Shown here: positions 1 through 8,183 of the stretch, in pieces | How the letters are laid out: each line of letters starts with the position of its first letter | Position numbering within the stretch: the stretch's first letter is position 1 | Assembly: GCA_009785325.1 (NCBI GenBank) | Contig: WQWN01000003.1 | Location: 24,450 to 88,449, forward strand | Length of the DNA stretch: 64,000 nucleotides | Direction: 5' to 3' | Source: Candidatus Saccharimonadota bacterium | Lineage (GTDB): Bacteria > Patescibacteriota > Saccharimonadia > Saccharimonadales > Saccharimonadaceae | Notes under the pieces: generated by a model | Databases searched by the model: none | Seen by the model: the letters and a program-made list of their open reading frames with translations, nothing else | Told to the model about the DNA's origin: nothing | Translations under genes and position numbers: made by a program

Positions 1-206
1 CCCTCATACCTTAGTTCCGCTAACTCATTATTCATCTCCGCAGCGAGTGTCCGCAAGCTCTCAACCTCATTCCTTTGATCTATAAACTTCCAAACAAAAA
101 CTCCTGTTGCCACCGCCAGACAAACTACTATAATACTTAAAACTGCCATCAATTTACACTTCTTACCCTCTTTTCTCCCTCGTATAGCTTGCTCTTCTTG
201 CACCAT
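1..206 (-). CDS. hypothetical small membrane-anchored protein; its 3' end runs off the window
   Basis: ATG (rc of 204-206) is preceded by GGAGG (rc of 210-214) and TATAAT (rc of 229-234). My translation is MVQEEQAIRGRKEGKKCKLMAVLSIIVVCLAVATGVFVWKFIDQRNEVESL..., with one hydrophobic helix. Not in the supplied ORF track. Confidence 0.35.
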   Translation of the reverse strand, partial: MVQEEQAIRGRKEGKKCKLMAVLSIIVVCLAVATGVFVWKFIDQRNEVESLRTLAAEMNNELAELRYE

Positions 207-356
207 TAACCTCCTTATACTTTTCTTCATTATACTTATAACTTCACTATACCCCTACACCTATTTTATTCAGTTCCTCAATTACCCGCGCCGTCCCTTC
301 AGGAAATACCCCAGCTCAGACAACTCCTCTCTCACCTCTACCTCCTCACCCATTAC

Positions 357-1316
357 CTAATCCCTCTTCAACATCACCATAAACGCCTCACTCGGAATAT
401 CCACCTTCCCAATCCTTTTCATCCGTTTCTTCCCCTTCGCCTGCTTCGCCAGCAACTTCTTCTTCCGCGAAACATCCCCACCGTACAGATACCCCGTCAC
501 ATCCTTCCGAAACGCCCCGAGCGTCTCCCGCGCAATAAATTTCCCCCCAATCGCCGCCTGCAACGCCACCTCGAAATTCTGCCGCGGAATCACTTCCTTC
601 AATTTCTTCGTCATCTCTCGTCCCAGCGCCAAAGTTTCCGACCGATGCGCCATCACAGATAATGCCGACACCATCTCGCCAGCCACATAAAAATCCACCC
701 TCACCAAATCCTCCGCCCGATAATCATCCAACTCATAATTAAACGTCCCATACCCACTCGTCACACTCTTCAGCTGATCATAAAAATCCGTCAACAAATT
801 CGCCATCGGCGCCTCAAAACTAACAAGCGCCCGCCCCTCAATATACCCCAAATTCTTCTGCACCCCCCGCTTCGCCACCACCAACTGTATAACTACGCCT
901 ACATATTCTTTCGGCACAATTATCTCACCCTTGATCCAAGGCTCACGAATCTCAGCCACCTTCGACACATCCGGCAGGTCCGACGCCGACTTAATATCCA
1001 ATTCCTCCCCGCTACTGAGAGTCACATGATAATCCGTCGAAGGATTCGTCACAATCAAATCCAGATCAAACTCCCGCTCCAGTCTCTCCTTAATTATATC
1101 CATATGCAAAAGCCCAAGGAAACCAATCCTCATCCCATATCCCAAAACTGGCGAATTCTCCGGCTCAAACTGTAGCGCCGAATCCGACAACGCCAACCTC
1201 TCCACCGCCTCCTTTAGGTCCTTATACTGATCATTCGACACCGTAAAAAACCCCGCATAAACAAACGGTTTAACTTCCTTATACCCCGGCAACGGCTCGA
1301 CAATTACTCTACCCAT
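357..1316 (-). CDS. lepA: elongation factor 4 (LepA), C-terminal half only (domains III, V and the LepA C-terminal domain)
   Basis: LPGYKEVKPFVYAGFF, GFLGLLHMDIIKERLEREFDLDLI and YGGDVSRKKKLLAKQAKGKKRMKRIGKVDIP match canonical LepA from about residue 290 to the C-terminus. It has its own ATG. Confidence 0.9.
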   Translation of the reverse strand: MGRVIVEPLPGYKEVKPFVYAGFFTVSNDQYKDLKEAVERLALSDSALQFEPENSPVLGYGMRIGFLGLLHMDIIKERLEREFDLDLIVTNPSTDYHVTLSSGEELDIKSASDLPDVSKVAEIREPWIKGEIIVPKEYVGVVIQLVVAKRGVQKNLGYIEGRALVSFEAPMANLLTDFYDQLKSVTSGYGTFNYELDDYRAEDLVRVDFYVAGEMVSALSVMAHRSETLALGREMTKKLKEVIPRQNFEVALQAAIGGKFIARETLGAFRKDVTGYLYGGDVSRKKKLLAKQAKGKKRMKRIGKVDIPSEAFMVMLKRD

Positions 1317-1325
1317 CTGACATCT

Positions 1326-1334
1326 ATTCTACCA
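1326..1334 (-). promoter_or_regulatory. extended -10 (TGGTAGAAT) 9 nt upstream of the lepA C-fragment ATG; leaderless-type
   Basis: The rc of attctacca at 1326-1334. The ATG is at 1316 with no SD between them. Confidence 0.5.
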
Positions 1335-1371
1335 CCTCTATTTCACCCCTACAACTCCACCAGGTGCGTTA

Positions 1372-1794
1372 TCACAACTCGAAATCTTCCAACGTCAGAT
1401 TACAATAATACTTCCCTCGCCTCGCCGTAAATTTCAACACACAATAATCAGGATCCGTCACTCCCTCCGCATAATAAATATGATCTCCCCTCTTCCACAC
1501 TTCCTTCTTCACCGCCTCATCCTCCAACACCTCCATTTTCCCCACCAACATCACCCCTTGATACTTCCACGGTCTCTGCTCATAAAAATAAATGCAAGCC
1601 TTCGGATTTTCTCGCCACTGCTTCACCCTCTCCGAACTCGTATTTGTCGTAAACCAAAACTCCCGCACACCACTCCGCTTTCTTGGTGGCAGCATCGCCT
1701 TCATATTCGGAAAACCCTCTCCGTCCACCGACCCCACAAAAGCCACCTTCGACTTCGCCACCAACTTCTCTACTTTCTTAATCACACTACTCAC
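1372..1794 (-). CDS. pyridoxamine 5'-phosphate oxidase-like FMN-binding split-barrel protein
   Basis: The 140-aa length and the pattern VAFVGSVDGEGFPNMKAM...CIYFY...GVMLVGKMEVLED are typical of the PNPOx / general-stress-26 family. Confidence 0.6.
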   Translation of the reverse strand: MSSVIKKVEKLVAKSKVAFVGSVDGEGFPNMKAMLPPRKRSGVREFWFTTNTSSERVKQWRENPKACIYFYEQRPWKYQGVMLVGKMEVLEDEAVKKEVWKRGDHIYYAEGVTDPDYCVLKFTARRGKYYCNLTLEDFEL

Positions 1795-2468
1795 TTCCTC
1801 ACCCCCAGCTCTTCCTCCACTTCACCCATCCGAATCCCCTCCTCCTTCAACCACTCTGCCATCTCCAAAAACACCCCTTCGAACTGCCCCTTCTCGATCC
1901 CATGTACCACCCACGCCTTCCCTAGTGTCAAATTCCCCGCCGCACGCATTTCCAACCTCCGCGACTCCATCCACTCTTCCTCCCGTGGCGTCTCATAATC
2001 CGTCCACCCCTCCTCATCAGCTACCTTCATCTGTAGCACATTCTCCAGTTTATCTATCTGATTACAGAACCTCGCCTCAGCCGACCTATTCTCCTCAAAC
2101 TCCAAAAACAACCCCATCAAATCCTCACCCACACCGAGCATCCCACGGATCTTATCCATCGCCGCATGCTCCATCGCAAATTTATCCTCCTCACTCACTC
2201 CACACCCAGGTGTAATATCCCCAGTAATCGCCTCGCATAATTCATGCGTCGCCAGCATCATCATCACCCGATTCAAATCCACTTCAATATCAAACTCACT
2301 CGCCATCGCAATCGCCAGCATCTGCGTCCCATAAACATGCTCCGCCACACTCTCCATTCGCGGCGCTTTCACACCCCAGACCACCGCACCACTCCGAATT
2401 ACCTCCTTCAATCTCGCCGCCAAAACCCAAAACTCCACCACTCGTCGCTTCTTATCCTTCATTTTCAT
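1791..2468 (-). CDS. HD-domain phosphohydrolase (YfbR-like 5'-deoxynucleotidase family)
   Basis: ESVAEHVYGTQMLA ... LATHELCEAITGDITP matches the metal-binding motif pattern of HD_3 proteins. Confidence 0.6.
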   Translation of the reverse strand: MKMKDKKRRVVEFWVLAARLKEVIRSGAVVWGVKAPRMESVAEHVYGTQMLAIAMASEFDIEVDLNRVMMMLATHELCEAITGDITPGCGVSEEDKFAMEHAAMDKIRGMLGVGEDLMGLFLEFEENRSAEARFCNQIDKLENVLQMKVADEEGWTDYETPREEEWMESRRLEMRAAGNLTLGKAWVVHGIEKGQFEGVFLEMAEWLKEEGIRMGEVEEELGVRK

Positions 2469-3066
2469 CCTTCCTCGCCGCGATCATCGCGCGATATTCT
2501 TTATTTGACACCAAACTCCCTTTCTCAATGAAATCCGTAAACAACTTCCCCTCCAAATGATCCACTTCATGCTGCAAAACATGCGCCACGAACCCACTCA
2601 CCACCTCCTCACATTCTTCTCCACCCCGATCCAAATACTTCACTTTCACCTTCTTAAATCTCATCACCTGCGCCATCGCTGGCTCACCATTCTCATCTTG
2701 CGCCGTACTTACACATCCTTCCCACATCAACTTCGGCTCTCCGTAAGTCTCCACGATCTCCGCATTCACCAGCACCTTCTCAAAAACCTTCCGATTCGGT
2801 CGCACAAGCGTCGGCTTGATCGCGATCACACTGATCGCCATCGATTCCCCCACTTGGTTCGCGCTCAGTCCCACTCCATACTCATTTTCATCGCACGTAA
2901 ACTTAATATCATCAATCAAGCTCTGAATCACCTCTGATCTCACTTCTTCCTCTGTCAACTTCCGACACTTTTGACGCAAAGCCTCATCCCCCGCACCCAC
3001 CAACTTCAACATCTTCGGCCCCCTTCTATCTTCAAAGCCTCCCTCTCTAGATTCTTCCAGCTTCAT
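2452..3066 (-). CDS. def: peptide deformylase
   Basis: All three Def motifs are present: GVGLSANQVG, EGCVS and QHEVDHLEG. Confidence 0.9.
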   Translation of the reverse strand: MKLEESREGGFEDRRGPKMLKLVGAGDEALRQKCRKLTEEEVRSEVIQSLIDDIKFTCDENEYGVGLSANQVGESMAISVIAIKPTLVRPNRKVFEKVLVNAEIVETYGEPKLMWEGCVSTAQDENGEPAMAQVMRFKKVKVKYLDRGGEECEEVVSGFVAHVLQHEVDHLEGKLFTDFIEKGSLVSNKEYRAMIAARKDENEG

Positions 3067-3073
3067 GCACTAC

Positions 3074-3079
3074 ATTATA
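3074..3079 (-). promoter_or_regulatory. -10 TATAAT 7 nt upstream of the def ATG (leaderless-type)
   Basis: The rc of attata at 3074-3079. It lies directly after the terminator at 3090-3122. Confidence 0.5.
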
Positions 3080-3089
3080 CACTCCTTCT

Positions 3090-3122
3090 ATAAAAATGAG
3101 CCGCATTTTTCGAATGCGGCTC
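3090..3122 (-). terminator. intrinsic terminator (10-bp perfect stem GAGCCGCATT/AATGCGGCTC, 5-nt loop, followed by a T-tract on the minus strand)
   Basis: Stem 3098-3107 pairs with 3113-3122. The minus-strand continuation is ATTTTTAT (rc of 3090-3097). Confidence 0.75.
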
Positions 3123-3514
3123 GATGCGTGTTTTTATGCAGAAACACACAAAACTTTTTCGGGAAAAGATTTCATCATCAACCTCATAGACGCAGCCAAC
3201 AAACCACGTTTTATCCATGAAACTATCCAACTTCCTGCTTCGCCCTCGCACGCCCTACTTCCGAACATTCCAGGCGCCGTTCCCGCTCTCCGATTTTCTT
3301 TTATATAGAAAACCTCGACCACGCGACCGCCCTACTCAACCCAACTCCAACATGTTGCTGCTAGTATCTTCCGACCAAGCCGTATCCGCTGTTCTATCGC
3401 AAAAAATCTCGTCAGACTCTTCACTTCTCCAACTTCAACGCAGACCGTAGAACCTCTCTAGCTACTAGAGTTTTCTTTGTAAAGCCTTTCACGCAGCTCC
3501 GGTACGCCGACAGA

Positions 3515-4138
3515 TTACGCTGATTCTTTGTTAAGTCTTTTCTGATGACACACAATCTCCGCGTCAATCACAACAGGATCGTGAACCGTCCCACGAAACA
3601 CTTTTCTCGTAGTCGTAACTCCAAATTCAGAAGTATTAAACCCATATCCTGAGGTATCAACACCCCCAAGCCCAATCAGGCCAAATTTACCACCTTTACT
3701 GACCTTACATAATGCCAATCTCGCTTGCGCCGGTCTTCTCGTGAAATGATCTTCCCGAATGAAGGGATCGTCTGTCGCCGACGCCCACACTATTTCGATA
3801 CTGTCGTAGTTCTTCAAAACAAACTTTCCCGCCCGACAGTCAAACAATCCTCTGTTTCCATTCGGCATTATCACAGGCACAAATTGCGCGCCTTCCTGTT
3901 CATGTAAAAACCTGAACTTACCAAACGGCAAAATAATCTTGTTAACAACCTCCGGGCCATCTTCAATTCTTATCACTCCTTGCAGCTCATCTCTCTGCAA
4001 AATCAGAAACTTCACATGTATCATAGTGCAGGATCTTTCGAACATCCCCCTTACGTCGATCTTGTTACGCGTTCCAGCACCTATTTCAGCAAGTACCCTC
4101 GTCCCTTCTGGCAGTTTCATCTCTTCCCTCCTTGTCAA
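3515..4138 (-). CDS. hypothetical protein (207 aa), no recognisable family
   Basis: Long ORF with an AGGAGGGAAGAG SD-like run before the ATG. Its G/C composition is balanced, unlike the flanking genes. Confidence 0.5.
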   Translation of the reverse strand: MTRREEMKLPEGTRVLAEIGAGTRNKIDVRGMFERSCTMIHVKFLILQRDELQGVIRIEDGPEVVNKIILPFGKFRFLHEQEGAQFVPVIMPNGNRGLFDCRAGKFVLKNYDSIEIVWASATDDPFIREDHFTRRPAQARLALCKVSKGGKFGLIGLGGVDTSGYGFNTSEFGVTTTRKVFRGTVHDPVVIDAEIVCHQKRLNKESA

Positions 4139-4325
4139 CGTGCAAATTTCTTCTGCCTCCAGAATACAGGTGACTTTATCTCAACGCAAGCACGAGCATC
4201 AATAGCAGAGATCCTTATTTGCGCCTATCTTTTCCGCTCTGACTACTCCGCCGTGACCTATTCACATACACAAACCCCACCGCTAACGCCCCCATGATCC
4301 CTAGCCACAAAACTCCCCACCACAT

Positions 4326-5012
4326 CTACTTCTCCTCCTTGTTTTGTTCCAAAATCTCTCCATTCCGCAATCTTGCCCAGTACTTACCCACCACTTTCAC
4401 ATCTTCACCATCAACGACCACTGCACTCCAATCCGACAAAGTATAAACATCCCAATCCACATTCCTAGAAATATCAAAAACTACCACATCTTTCTCATCT
4501 GCCATCAAATTCCCTCCTCGCAGATGCGGCAAAATCGAAAAATCTAACAATTCCAAATATCGCCCCACACCCCAGTCGTCAAACTCACCAAACACTTGCC
4601 TCTGCCATTCCGCACTCACCATCTTACCCAAAATCATCGACCCCGCCGAACTCCCACACCACACTTTTTCCTTTAATAGCTCCGGCAGAATCTCCGAAAA
4701 CCCCGTCTTGTCAAAAACCGTCTTCAGATACTCCGTATTTCCACCAAAACAAAAAATCGCATCGGCTTCACTAATGCGCTCTTGTACCTTATCCAGCGGC
4801 AATGCTAATAAGTTCACTAACTCAAACCCACCAAAACGATGCTTCAAAAAATGCATTCCATCCACAAAAAATGAATTGTCGCCATGCTCGACTGCCACTG
4901 CCTCATTTATCACTGCGAATCTTATCTTCTTCGCAGGTTTTCCGACCAGCTCCTCTAGCTCTCTCGTCTCATCCAGACCCGTAAAATCCGACGAAAACAA
5001 AATCGCCTTCAC
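4326..5012 (-). CDS. peptidase S51 (dipeptidase E-like) family protein
   Basis: FCFGGNTEYL ... CGSSAGSMILG matches the nucleophile-elbow pattern of S51. The GTG start is 2 nt after the lepA N-fragment stop, with the SD inside the lepA end. Confidence 0.7.
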   Translation of the reverse strand: MKAILFSSDFTGLDETRELEELVGKPAKKIRFAVINEAVAVEHGDNSFFVDGMHFLKHRFGGFELVNLLALPLDKVQERISEADAIFCFGGNTEYLKTVFDKTGFSEILPELLKEKVWCGSSAGSMILGKMVSAEWQRQVFGEFDDWGVGRYLELLDFSILPHLRGGNLMADEKDVVVFDISRNVDWDVYTLSDWSAVVVDGEDVKVVGKYWARLRNGEILEQNKEEK

Positions 5013-5014
5013 CC

Positions 5015-5983
5015 CTACTTCCCCTCTCCGAAATACTTCTTCAAACTCACCGTATCTCCCACTCGCGCATCCCGCGTCGTCTTCAAATTCGTCACGATAT
5101 ACCCAATTTCTCCTGTCCCTAACTCATCCATCGGCATCATCCCTGGGCTCAACTTCCCAATCTCCAACGCCAACCCTGAAACCTCCGCCGCCATCATCCG
5201 CACCGCATCCCCCTTTCTCAACTTCCCATCCACTACCCTCACATAAAGCACTACTCCGCGATAATCATCATAATACGAATCAAAAATCAACGCCCGTAAA
5301 GGCCCTTCCGTATCACCAGTAGGCGCAGGTACTCGCTCCACCACCGCATCCAACACCTCTTTCACCCCCATTCCCGTCTTCGCCGAAATCTTCAAAATCT
5401 CATCCTCCCCACACCCCAACAAATTCATCACCTCCTTCGAAATCTTCGGCACATCCGCCGCTGGCAGGTCAATTTTATTTAGCACAGGAATTATCTTCAA
5501 ATCCTGCTCCATCGCCAGATATACATTCGCCAAAGTCTGCGCCTGAATCCCCTGACTCGCATCCACCACCAGAATCGCCCCCTCGCACGCCTGCAAACTC
5601 CGACTCACTTCGTAACTAAAATCCACATGCCCTGGCGTATCAATCAAGTTCAGTTCATAACTACCATTCAACGATTTTATATCTTCGATACTATGCGAGG
5701 AATCAGGAGTAGCGGAGTGAGCGGTATTTGACATACCGCGATCGAGCAACGCATCTGATGACAAAGTAGAGTGCGAAGCTACGAAATCGTACTTCATCCT
5801 CACCGGCGTCAATTTTATCGTAATCCCCTTCTCCCTCTCCAGCTCCATCGAATCTAGTAGCTGCTCTTTCATCTCTCGCTTATCCACCGTTGACGTCATC
5901 TCCATCATTCTGTCCGCCAGCGTCGACTTCCCATGATCAATATGCGCAATTATGCAAAAATTTCTGATCCGATCCAAACTCAC
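5015..5983 (-). CDS. lepA: elongation factor 4 (LepA), N-terminal half only (GTPase domain plus domain II), carrying a ~35-aa insert
   Basis: [30 protein letters not shown] and LNKIDLP are present. It ends ...[17 protein letters not shown], at the domain II/III linker. Confidence 0.9.
5669..5773. repeat. in-frame, bias-breaking insert in the LepA GTPase domain (putative RPE/MITE-like coding insertion)
   Basis: Encodes [35 protein letters not shown] between conserved KYDF.. and ..[11 protein letters not shown]. It is G-rich on the + strand, unlike its surroundings. It shares AGCTACGAAA (5777-5786) with the insert at 36613-36750. Confidence 0.45.
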
Positions 5984-7608
5984 TTCGCTCTCCTCGCTAC
6001 AGCTTTTTTAACTCTATTCACCACCGGCACCATTTCTTCCAGCTTCAGCAACCAACTCAGTCCTACGTAAACCCCCAGACTCACTCCAGCAATCAACGCA
6101 AACCTCGGGAAAGTATCCCAAAAACTCGGCTCATCTGCAAGCAGCGGCATCATCCTCGTCATTCCATACGCCACCATTCCCGCCAGCGCACTAGCAATCA
6201 CCATCTTACTACCCGCTCGCCAAAACTCTTGATTCAAAAGTCCTCTTTCGCGCCGACCCAAAATCACCGCCAATATCACCACTTCCAATAGTGCCGTAAT
6301 CGATTGAGCTATCGCCATCCCATACACCCCCATTCCCCACCTCAGTGCAAAAGTTATCGCCAACCCGATATTAAGTGCGACGACAAACACCGACACAAGC
6401 AGCGGCGTCCGCGTATCCTGCCTTGCATAAAAACTCCTCGACAAAATATGATAGACCGACCTCGCAAACAAACTCACTACTAGCGCCCCCAAAATCCCCG
6501 CAATTACAGGATCACCGCCCACCACGATAAAGTTCACTACATACCCACGCGTAAAATAAGTAATTGCCGCTACAGGCATCGCGATCCAAATAATCGTCCG
6601 TATCGCCATCCGCACCGTCCGTCGAAACTCTTCAATTCTTCCCCCACTCAGATCCTCCGTCATCTTCGGGAAAAACGCCGTACTGATCGCCACCCCGACC
6701 AGATTCACAGGCATCATATGTAGCGCGAGCGCCTGCTGATACATCCTCACACTTCCACTTGCCATTCGACTCGCAATATTAATTTCCACCAGACCCTTCA
6801 CATAATCCAGTCCCTGATGCAAACTCCTCGCAGGCAACAACTTCAAAACCCGCCGAAAACCATGATTTCGCCAATTAATCACAAATTCATAATCAAATCC
6901 CAGCCCCACAAGTCCGATCACACTCACCACCAGCTGCATCGCCGCTCCCAAAACCACTCCTAACGCCACTCCCATAATTCCTCCCTCAAACACCTGCCAC
7001 CCAAAGATATTTATTCCCCCCGTAAACCAAACTATCCCGATGATAATCCCAATATTATAAATCGCCGGCGCCAACGCCGAAAATACAAACCTCCCCACCG
7101 CCTGTTGCATACTCGCAATCACCGTCGCTATAGCAAAAAGAAACGGATTGATCGCAATCACCCTCATCATACTAATCGCCAGCGCCCGCGTCGCCTCATC
7201 AAACCCCGCCCCTACCACATACGTCACCAGTGACTCCGCGAAAATAATAATCAAAACACTCGCCACTAGCGTAATGATCGCAAACAAATTCAGCAAACTC
7301 GACGACAATTCCCATGCCGCTCTCCGTTGCCCTGCTGCCATTCGCTGATTAAACACAGGTATGAACGTCACCGCCAGCGCCCCACTCACCAAAATAAAGA
7401 ACATAAAATCAGGAATCACAAACGCCGCAGTGTACGCATCTGCTCCTGTCGGATAAGTATGTAGATAGTTCGCGTTAAACAACCGATCTCGAAAAATCCC
7501 GAGAAGCGCCGAAACAAACGTCGAGCTCGCCAACACCATCGCCGCGACTTTAATCGATAGCTTTGCATTCGCCTTATCCACGACATTCTTAAGATTTACT
7601 TTCTGCAT
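5980..7608 (-). CDS. murJ: lipid II flippase MurJ/MviN
   Basis: 542-aa polytopic membrane protein. The N-terminal segment [21 protein letters not shown] and the overall architecture are typical of MurJ. Confidence 0.85.
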
Positions 7609-7674: not shown

Positions 7675-8127
7675 CTATTTTGCCAAAACTCCCACCGCTT
7701 CAGGCGCCTCCATCTCATCCGCAAAAAACATACTATACCTCTCTGTATTGAACCTCAGTAAATAGAAATTCGGATCTTCAGGCCCACTCCACATCCCCGC
7801 CATCGGCTCAAACCAATTCTCCTTTTTCACATCCATATCCTCCACTACCTCCACTGTCCCTACGAGATTTATATTATACCCACTCGAACTCAGACAAATA
7901 CTCGCACGGTTATTCTTCGCGATTCGCTTTGCCTTGTTACTGTCTGGACTAGTAGCTAACGTAATCCACTTTATTCCGTCCGCCCTCGCAATCGTAAACG
8001 TCGAACTTGTCGGATACCCATCTTCGTCAATCAAAGAAATCACTGCGCACCCTTCCATCCCACCGCCAATATATCCCGACTTCGAACTAATCAATTCACT
8101 CGCTCGCTCAATCACTTTTTCACTCAT
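7675..8127 (-). CDS. pyridoxamine 5'-phosphate oxidase-like family protein
   Basis: A split-barrel-like pattern (ASICLSS..INLVGTVEVVEDMDVKKENW). The start was chosen at the ATG 5 nt after GGAGG (rc of 8133-8137) rather than the track start at 8148. Confidence 0.55.
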   Translation of the reverse strand: MSEKVIERASELISSKSGYIGGGMEGCAVISLIDEDGYPTSSTFTIARADGIKWITLATSPDSNKAKRIAKNNRASICLSSSGYNINLVGTVEVVEDMDVKKENWFEPMAGMWSGPEDPNFYLLRFNTERYSMFFADEMEAPEAVGVLAK

Positions 8128-8183
8128 ACTACTCCTCCTTTTTCTCAACTATATCACACCCCCTCCACCAGTTCCGAATCAAG

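Follow-up and report, generated by a model that had tools for sequence, protein, structure and literature searches.

The window analysed in this study comprises 64,000 nucleotides (nt) of a contig (WQWN01000003.1) from a Candidatus Saccharimonadota bacterium. It carries lepA, the gene of the translational GTPase elongation factor 4 (EF4), in two separate open reading frames (ORFs), lepA-N and lepA-C, which lie on the same strand with other genes between them (Table 1). A preliminary description, made from the sequence only, had placed this division in the linker between domains II and III, and the coordinates, the Pfam matches and the alignments to EF4 of E. coli (3CB4) agree with it. The gap content given there, namely a S51 peptidase, an ORF of no recognised family, a non-coding stretch with a terminator, def, a HD hydrolase and a PNPOx-like protein, was also found as described, with a measured length of 448 nt for the non-coding stretch.

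Table 1. Features of the split lepA locus, listed in the direction of transcription (positions refer to the window; aa, amino acids; pLDDT, predicted local distance difference test score)
Feature	Position	Strand	Basis or remark
murJ (lipid II flippase)	5980..7608	(-)	Pfam MurJ; upstream of lepA-N
lepA-N: EF4 G domain + domain II, 322 aa	5015..5983	(-)	ORF list, Pfam, TIGR01393
Low-complexity G-domain insertion, ~40 aa	5666..5788	(-)	Alignment gap vs 2YWE; pLDDT <50
New C-terminal tail of lepA-N, L-K-K-Y-F-GEGK-stop	5015..5044	(-)	
Cargo gene 1: S51 peptidase	4326..5012	(-)	Pfam
Cargo gene 2: 207-aa ORF without family match	3515..4138	(-)	
Non-coding stretch, 448 nt, terminator-like hairpin + TATAAT box	3067..3514	(-)	
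Cargo gene 3: def, peptide deformylase	2452..3066	(-)	Pfam
Cargo gene 4: HD_3 / YfbR-like hydrolase	1791..2468	(-)	Pfam
Cargo gene 5: PNPOx-like protein	1372..1794	(-)	Pfam
TGGTAGAAT, extended -10-like box	1326..1334	(-)	Consensus match only
lepA-C: EF4 domains III, V + LepA-specific C-terminal domain, 319 aa	357..1316	(-)	ORF list, Pfam, TIGR01393

In lepA-N, GTP_EFTU is matched by residues 5-219 and GTP_EFTU_D2 by residues 243-312, so that this half indeed contains the complete GTPase domain and domain II, as first described. NKID, SAK, the motifs G1-G5 and the catalytic His of DTPGH are all intact, and the G motifs are invariant across 59 N-half sequences. The downstream half begins MGRVIVEPLPGYKEVKPFVYAGFF and is matched by EFG_C (residues 123-201) and LepA_C (212-317). 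Its start sequence reads MGRVIVEPLPGYK, where a new head, MGRVIVE, precedes PLPGYK. Residues 105-316 of the N-half align to residues 66-278 of 3CB4 and residues 7-316 of the C-half to residues 283-592, which confirms that lepA-C is the next segment of EF4 and continues through the normal C-terminus. The E-values of both halves against solved EF4 chains range from 1e-88 to 1e-102. Since the halves are collinear with EF4 up to residue 278 and again from residue 283, the break sits in the II/III linker (E. coli residues ~279/283) and all domains are present; only about four linker residues are lost. The TIGR01393 profile gives the same picture with 411.3 bits for lepA-N (profile positions 1-276) and 422.8 bits for lepA-C (positions 281-594). 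Both scores are below the curated equivalog cutoff of 533.9 bits, which refers to a single polypeptide of ~600 aa, and neither half qualifies as a single-chain equivalog. A scan of ten other large ORFs in the window (565-984 aa) yielded no match to lepA or to a translational GTPase.

The N-half is tightly packed between its neighbours. Its GTG start overlaps the stop codon of murJ (GTGA), and the GTG start of the S51 peptidase gene is located one base past its own TAG stop, in accordance with the translational coupling proposed in the preliminary description. Synteny in 70 loci revealed that the order ftsH-murJ-lepA is kept across Saccharibacteria. The insertion in the G domain (residues ~66-106) is rich in Ser, Thr and Ala, is situated between beta2 and beta3 and has no counterpart in solved EF4 structures. 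It varies among relatives, with N-half lengths of 277-329 aa, and is predicted to be disordered by AlphaFold2 (AF2).

The comparison with related genomes allowed us to follow the split beyond the window. A search with the C-half delivered about 8000 relatives, of which the best 120 were inspected: nearly all are 316-322 aa long, contain EFG_C and LepA_C only and are labelled Saccharibacteria. The best 120 relatives of the N-half contain only the G domain and domain II (277-329 aa). For 80 species representatives, chosen as the best matches to the C-half of the window, the locus around the C-half homologue was fetched and the N-half was located. Here, lepA is one fused ORF in 40/80 loci. The N-half lies upstream of the C-half on the same strand, at a distance of 0.41-9.9 kb, in 25/80, and a C-half ORF starts at the junction with the N-half absent from the fetched flank in 7/80, giving a total of 32/80 species representatives with the II/III split. 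In the other 8/80 the II/III linker is intact and lepA is broken elsewhere. The break codon is identical in the 25 representatives with an upstream N-half on the same strand.

Complete genomes of two cultured strains carry the same arrangement. In Nanosynbacter lyticus TM7x (CP007496) the order is ftsH-murJ-lepA-N (309 aa), a 160-aa ORF and lepA-C (320 aa). In Southlakia epibionticum ML1 the split lepA is represented by SEML1_0727/0725 and no other gene is named LepA (PMC10633639 Tables S1/S2); both genes are listed in that paper without comment (PMC10633639). The nearest species, assembled independently three times (L081, L082 and L083), also has this architecture. The comparison of lepA loci in related genomes, which had been proposed in the preliminary description, thus revealed the same split in many Saccharibacteria. 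Candidates with a C-half only in distant lineages were drawn from a 50%-identity representative library. One of them (P0368) proved to be the contig-end truncation of a normal lepA-lepB operon, and another (P0439) is found on a 1.2-kb contig that is too short for a judgement. The II/III split is therefore claimed here for Saccharibacteria only.

The ends created by the split are conserved. All split N-halves carry VGDTV[TS]-L-x-[KR]-Y-[F/Y/V/I/M/L] at their end, with 0-6 residues before the stop codon, and all split C-halves restart with M, 2-6 residues and [IV]-x-[EQK]-PLPGYK. At the same place, the sequence of fused relatives is VGDTVT[VT][RK]R..A...LPGYK and the L-x-[KR]-Y-[F] tail motif is absent from them. 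In the tail, L was counted in 21/21, K/R in 20/21, Y in 21/21 and F in 16/21 sequences. As the DNA of the tail varies at synonymous positions, it is the peptide that is conserved. In two Nanosynbacter loci (L010 and L020) a frameshift lengthens the tail from GRYFN-stop to GRYLIKIKKGNHESTNNKLN-stop (L010:8217-8268), which suggests that the sequence past the conserved Tyr tolerates change.

Selection on both halves was estimated from pairwise Nei-Gojobori ratios of nonsynonymous to synonymous divergence (dN/dS). Over all split lineages dN/dS ranges from 0.025 to 0.18 for the N-half and from 0.005 to 0.09 for the C-half; the corresponding parts of fused lineages show 0.024-0.07 and 0.003-0.04. 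Within the split Nanosynbacter group (dS 0.2-1.9) the values are 0.025-0.16 for the N-half and 0.005-0.04 for the C-half, and for the window against its split relatives L081 and L084 (dS ~0.85-1.3) they are 0.16-0.18 and ~0.09. Judged by these ratios, both halves are under strong purifying selection. The preliminary description had concluded from a strand bias of the intervening genes that the split is not recent. This conclusion stands, and dS near or beyond saturation between split lineages is a far stronger argument for it.

A second fission of lepA, at the boundary of the G domain and domain II, was detected in the eight species representatives L029, L033, L035, L036, L038, L042, L045 and L047. 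Here, a 183-aa G-domain ORF ending in PAPKEI is followed by a 408-aa ORF that covers domain II to the C-terminal domain (e.g. L036:9165-10942). The two overlap at AAGGAGATTTAATGAAACC, a Shine-Dalgarno (SD) sequence and then a TAATG stop/start; the joint sequence AAGGAGATTTAATG comprises the SD and the overlapping stop/start. dN/dS is 0.016-0.05 for both ORFs and the II/III linker is intact. This fission, which is independent of the II/III split and belongs to a neighbouring clade, explains the sequence cluster P0085 (408 aa, 221 member sequences). In distant lineages (~51% identity), LepA proteins of 406-408 aa without a G domain were found. In two of these loci (L094:1666-2886 and L095:2316-3536) LepA directly follows ftsA and no G-domain ORF was found nearby, and at L097:3422-5224 a 162-aa GTP_EFTU ORF is located 90 nt upstream of the G-domain-less LepA.

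Putative expression signals accompany the new start of the C-half. In 23/38 split loci, a distance of 6-13 nt separates the end of a -10-like hexamer (TAnAAT/TATAnT) from the C-half start, and 22 of those 23 also have the TGn extension. In the window this is the TGnTAnAAT-type box TGGTAGAAT, which had already been noticed in the preliminary description and is indeed present 9 nt before the ATG at 1316. With a distance of 6-13 nt from box to start, a very short leader is predicted. In the remaining split loci the C-half abuts or overlaps the preceding ORF and a purine-rich, SD-like sequence is found. The non-coding stretch of the window, which holds a TATAAT box immediately ahead of def and a terminator-like hairpin (3098-3122), probably separates the transcription units of lepA-N and lepA-C. 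In papers on the physiology and transcriptome of TM7x, a search by name gave no expression data for its lepA halves.

The DNA between the halves turns over quickly and differs even between close relatives. Its size ranges from 0.4 to at least 10 kb across split loci, and it contains a single 135-136-aa ORF (L034, L044, L080), a GNAT acetyltransferase (L048), a DNA-alkylation-repair protein (L001, L019) or a DUF218 protein (L059). Other gaps contain an AAA_33 kinase and a GNAT protein (L017), two methyltransferases (L003) or, in the Nanosynbacter group, SemiSWEET, a MazG-like protein and a 164-aa ORF. At L087, SET, NUDIX, His_Phos_1, the 136-aa family, Ham1 and Exo_endo_phos were found, and islands of 6-10 kb occupy the gap of L004, L018, L024 and L064. 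The same holds for the closest relatives of the window. The gap of L084 (C-half 88% identical) contains GrpB only, and that of L081 (92% identical) contains DUF2726, HD_3, two ORFs without assignment, PNPOx and T5orf172. At L092 (93% identical) at least 10 kb of small genes lie upstream of the C-half, including homologues of def, S51 and PNPOx that are only 46-66% identical to the copies of the window.

Several further observations concern this cargo. In the window, L081, L087 and L092, the genes in and around the gap are rich in nucleotide and cofactor house-cleaning enzymes, comprising HD_3/YfbR-like, MazG-like, NUDIX, Ham1, dCMP deaminase and PNPOx-like proteins and the NDT-like 136-aa family. 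The 136-aa family has 1282 homologues, some of them in Clostridiales with 62% identity beside a dCMP deaminase gene; neither PHROGs nor NCBIfam contains a match to the 136-aa cargo ORF. The 207-aa ORF of the window likewise matches no family of Pfam, NCBIfam or PHROGs. The def gene lies within the variable gap in the window (2452-3066) as well as in L092 (1520-2074; 66% identical), and two PNPOx-like paralogues (1372-1794 and 7675-8148) are located on either side of lepA-N in the window.

In three loci, the gap contains direct repeats of the 3' end of lepA-N at the boundaries of cassettes. These have a length of 48 bp with 96% identity in L021 (7316-7363, 8519-8566), 36 bp in L005 (8108-8143, 8530-8565) and 26 bp in L017 (8886-8911, 9434-9459). 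In L017, the AAA_33 kinase ORF inserted in the gap has this repeat as its C-terminus (DTVILAKYFTKDTK-stop), and the order in L021 is a left cassette like that of L011, the repeat and a right cassette like that of L005. This pattern fits recombination that is anchored in the lepA flanks on one side and completed by an illegitimate join on the opposite side. In the gap of the window no copy of the N-half tail was found.

The base composition of the window is extreme. Over the whole 64 kb the GC skew on the plus strand has a mean of ~-0.43 (600-nt windows) and reaches -0.74, independent of gene orientation. Only the closest relatives share this skew, with values on the lepA coding strand of 0.48 for L081 and 0.29 for L084; L082 is also skewed, and other Saccharibacteria loci show 0.03-0.19 on that strand. 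The 207-aa ORF together with the non-coding stretch (3067-4138) has a skew of -0.35 versus -0.54 to -0.63 in the flanking cargo, which is consistent with a later arrival and may reflect it.

Observed are two complete ORFs, conserved under purifying selection, with a changing set of genes between them and a patchy occurrence. Taken together, we consider it probable that lepA underwent a true fission at the II/III linker whose two parts are maintained by selection, that its products would reassemble on the ribosome as a two-chain EF4 and that the gap between the halves is a hotspot of accessory genes. In the window, lepA-N would be translated within a tightly coupled murJ-lepA-N-S51 unit, and def-HD-PNPOx would form a separate unit beyond the terminator-like hairpin. 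Translation of lepA-C would occur separately: an extended -10 promoter of its own would give it a very short leader, or else it would depend on read-through out of the PNPOx gene. Both chains most likely meet non-covalently on the ribosome, where docking is possibly aided by the conserved new ends, L-K-K-Y-F in the tail and M..I-V-E in the head. The intervening DNA would not be part of the factor. Cargo and split allele probably move between Saccharibacteria by recombination after natural transformation, with the highly conserved lepA halves as homology arms, a mechanism that we infer from the patterns at the loci. Of the two outcomes considered in the preliminary description, two working polypeptides or decay, the first is supported by the conservation and by the purifying selection and the second is ruled out.

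Several points weigh against this interpretation. As the sample of 80 loci consists of the best matches to the C-half of the window, the prevalence of the split is biased toward relatives of the window, and in L025, L051 and L092 no N-half was found within 10 kb of the C-half (in L025 and L092 the upstream side was covered over at least 10 kb). Promoters and SD sequences were assigned by match to a consensus only, and the expression of both halves in this organism, their physical association and an EF4 activity are predicted from sequence. The AF2 models of the single halves, calculated from alignments of 58-59 close relatives, have low confidence (mean pLDDT 52.6 and 64.1), and the models, with pLDDT <50 for the new tail and head, are uninformative on the new ends. 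In the window clade, dN/dS of the N-half (0.16-0.18) exceeds that of fused lineages, which may indicate some relaxation or stem from the extremely skewed composition of the clade. The trees described below were obtained by neighbour-joining on two linked genes, and the test of recombination in L044 used a window that was chosen after inspection of the data. Finally, neither half is required by Southlakia in co-cultures in the laboratory, and their contribution to fitness is therefore subtle.

Data from the cultured strain bear on a joint function. Transposon sequencing (Tn-seq) in Southlakia classified both lepA halves and the intervening gene as non-essential in all passages (PMC10633639 Table S1). 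From T0 to T2 the normalised reads fell from 5009 to 3341 (-33%) for the N-half and from 2895 to 2020 (-30%) for the C-half, and those of the intervening gene rose from 2571 to 3535 (+37%) (PMC10633639 Table S1). The parallel fall of both halves hints at a shared function; it is suggestive only and not statistically tested.

The distribution of the split on the species tree is patchy. A neighbour-joining tree of FtsH and MurJ proteins (1143 columns, 100 bootstraps) places the split L044 as sister to the fused L076 (100%) within an otherwise fused clade of 15 members (100%), and the split L080 as sister to the fused L066 (100%). The group of the window is sister to a clade with an intact II/III linker (100%). 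Near the junction (last ~80 N-half codons and first 20 C-half codons), informative sites of L044 favour the split L034 over its sister L076 by 49:26, compared to 107:220 elsewhere (Fisher's exact p = 3e-7 for this window chosen post hoc). For L080, no clear recombination signal was detected at the junction. The sites in L044 are signs that the split allele was introgressed in at least one lineage. By natural competence, Saccharibacteria take up DNA and recombine it when it bears homologous arms (PMC10633639). One may tentatively go further and regard the split lepA as a landing pad that spreads horizontally, with its halves, owing to the strong conservation of lepA, acting as universal homology arms and the split gained repeatedly by introgression instead of descending from a single ancestor, although we would hesitate to prefer this picture. 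Cargo cassettes and the fission itself would then move between Saccharibacteria species by natural transformation, and a two-chain EF4 would be tolerated since the I-II block can dock on the ribosome independently of the block formed by III, V and the C-terminal domain.

A different explanation is that the halves work independently of each other and without any reassembly: lepA-N would be a small GTPase that associates with the ribosome, and lepA-C, on its own, would bind tRNA or the A site. In its favour, the terminator-like hairpin and the putative separate promoter would put the halves of the window in different transcription units, the distance between the halves is at least 10 kb in some genomes, and a distant lineage has a 406-aa LepA without G domain and without a G-domain ORF nearby. 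However, order, strand and proximity of the halves are kept in nearly all loci, both remain as conserved as in fused EF4, and the Tn-seq trends in Southlakia run in parallel (PMC10633639). In E. coli EF4, truncation of the C-terminal domain impairs the ribosome-dependent GTPase activity (PMC4339808). Since the GTPase depends on this domain, the halves are expected to need each other on the ribosome, and we regard full independence as unlikely.

It is also conceivable, though highly improbable, that excision of the DNA between the halves, RNA trans-splicing or a split intein brings back an intact gene or protein. Genes that are interrupted and later restored by excision are known from other bacteria, such as sigK with its skin element, and genes similar to T5orf172/GIY-YIG are present in some gaps. 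In the gap of the window, however, searches of Pfam, NCBIfam and PHROGs found no recombinase domain, and no direct or inverted repeats flank it: a repeat search of positions 300-6100 gave only short matches of low identity and no inverted repeats. No intron or other Rfam match (E<=1) was obtained in positions 1-6100, a Hint/intein domain is absent, and only ~7-9 residues are added at the new ends. Moreover, the stop codon, the start codon and the tail motif are themselves conserved, and the gap content is unrelated between lineages. As with the sigK skin and nifD elements, unrelated genes spanning several kb interrupt a conserved gene at the lepA locus, but its gap has neither recombinase nor flanking repeats, and each half possesses a conserved stop or start of its own.

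Still less credible is a decaying pseudogene, broken by the insertion of foreign genes. Such a fate would suit the reduced genomes of Saccharibacteria, the somewhat higher dN/dS of the window clade and the non-essential nature of lepA in Southlakia (PMC10633639) and in E. coli. Both ORFs are intact, however, in more than 30 species-level genomes, and the new termini and the expression signals are conserved. Decay is rejected by a dN/dS well under 1, at a dS near saturation, together with the invariant G motifs. Least of all, an assembly or binning artefact at one junction, which had been named in the preliminary description as a possible refutation and might be suspected of a metagenome-type contig seen once, is excluded, since this architecture recurs in the three separate assemblies available for the nearest species, in the complete genomes of the cultured TM7x and S. 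epibionticum and in many other metagenome-assembled genomes.

Compared to canonical EF4 (E. coli 3CB4; T. thermophilus 4W2E/5IMQ; Aquifex 2YWE), the split factor has all five domains in collinear order, G1-G5, the catalytic His and the LepA-specific C-terminal domain. It differs in consisting of two polypeptides, each with a new conserved terminus, and in the extra low-complexity loop of the G domain. Our literature searches, which covered about 8 million papers, revealed no report of a split lepA/EF4 nor of any split translational GTPase, and the preliminary description likewise knew of no described split EF4; apparent mentions of lepA in papers on Saccharibacteria were the surname Lepage. 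Beyond that description, the present analysis identifies the split as a wide trait of Saccharibacteria with fast-changing cargo and a patchy occurrence on the species tree, and adds a second type of lepA fission.

Split genes as such are familiar from reduced-genome episymbionts, as exemplified by Nanoarchaeum equitans. A further case is the split Dph1/2 of DPANN (PMC6143161). The lepA split shares with these the fission at a domain boundary, the ultrasmall host and the retention of both parts; in contrast, the lepA halves remain in synteny and share one orientation, related species differ in whether lepA is split, and a cargo hotspot lies between the halves. This hotspot in turn resembles the pneumococcal capsule locus between dexB and aliA, where variable cargo is exchanged by homologous recombination in a transformable host. 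Common features are conserved flanks, unrelated cargo in close relatives, a competent host group and, for this type of lepA locus, flank fragments duplicated at cassette boundaries. Unlike the capsule locus, the flanks are the halves of one former gene, and the cargo mixes small housekeeping and repair-type enzymes instead of encoding one pathway. Gene fission in such organisms is therefore known, and new here are the split EF4, the cargo hotspot, the patchiness and the second fission.

For genome surveys, the finding has a practical side. TIGR01393 (lepA) is among the marker genes identified by GTDB-Tk, and because each half scores under the cutoff of this family, lepA may be recorded as missing or fragmentary in these lineages. 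If the two-chain EF4 holds true, the covalent link between the GTPase block (I-II) and the tRNA-side block of domains III, V and the C-terminal domain is dispensable. The split factor of the genetically tractable TM7x and Southlakia would then be a ready system for studying communication between the blocks, and the second, independent fission suggests that lepA is unusually tolerant of cuts at domain linkers. The gap itself represents a compact site of accessory gene turnover in very small genomes and might become a candidate neutral insertion site for the engineering of Saccharibacteria.

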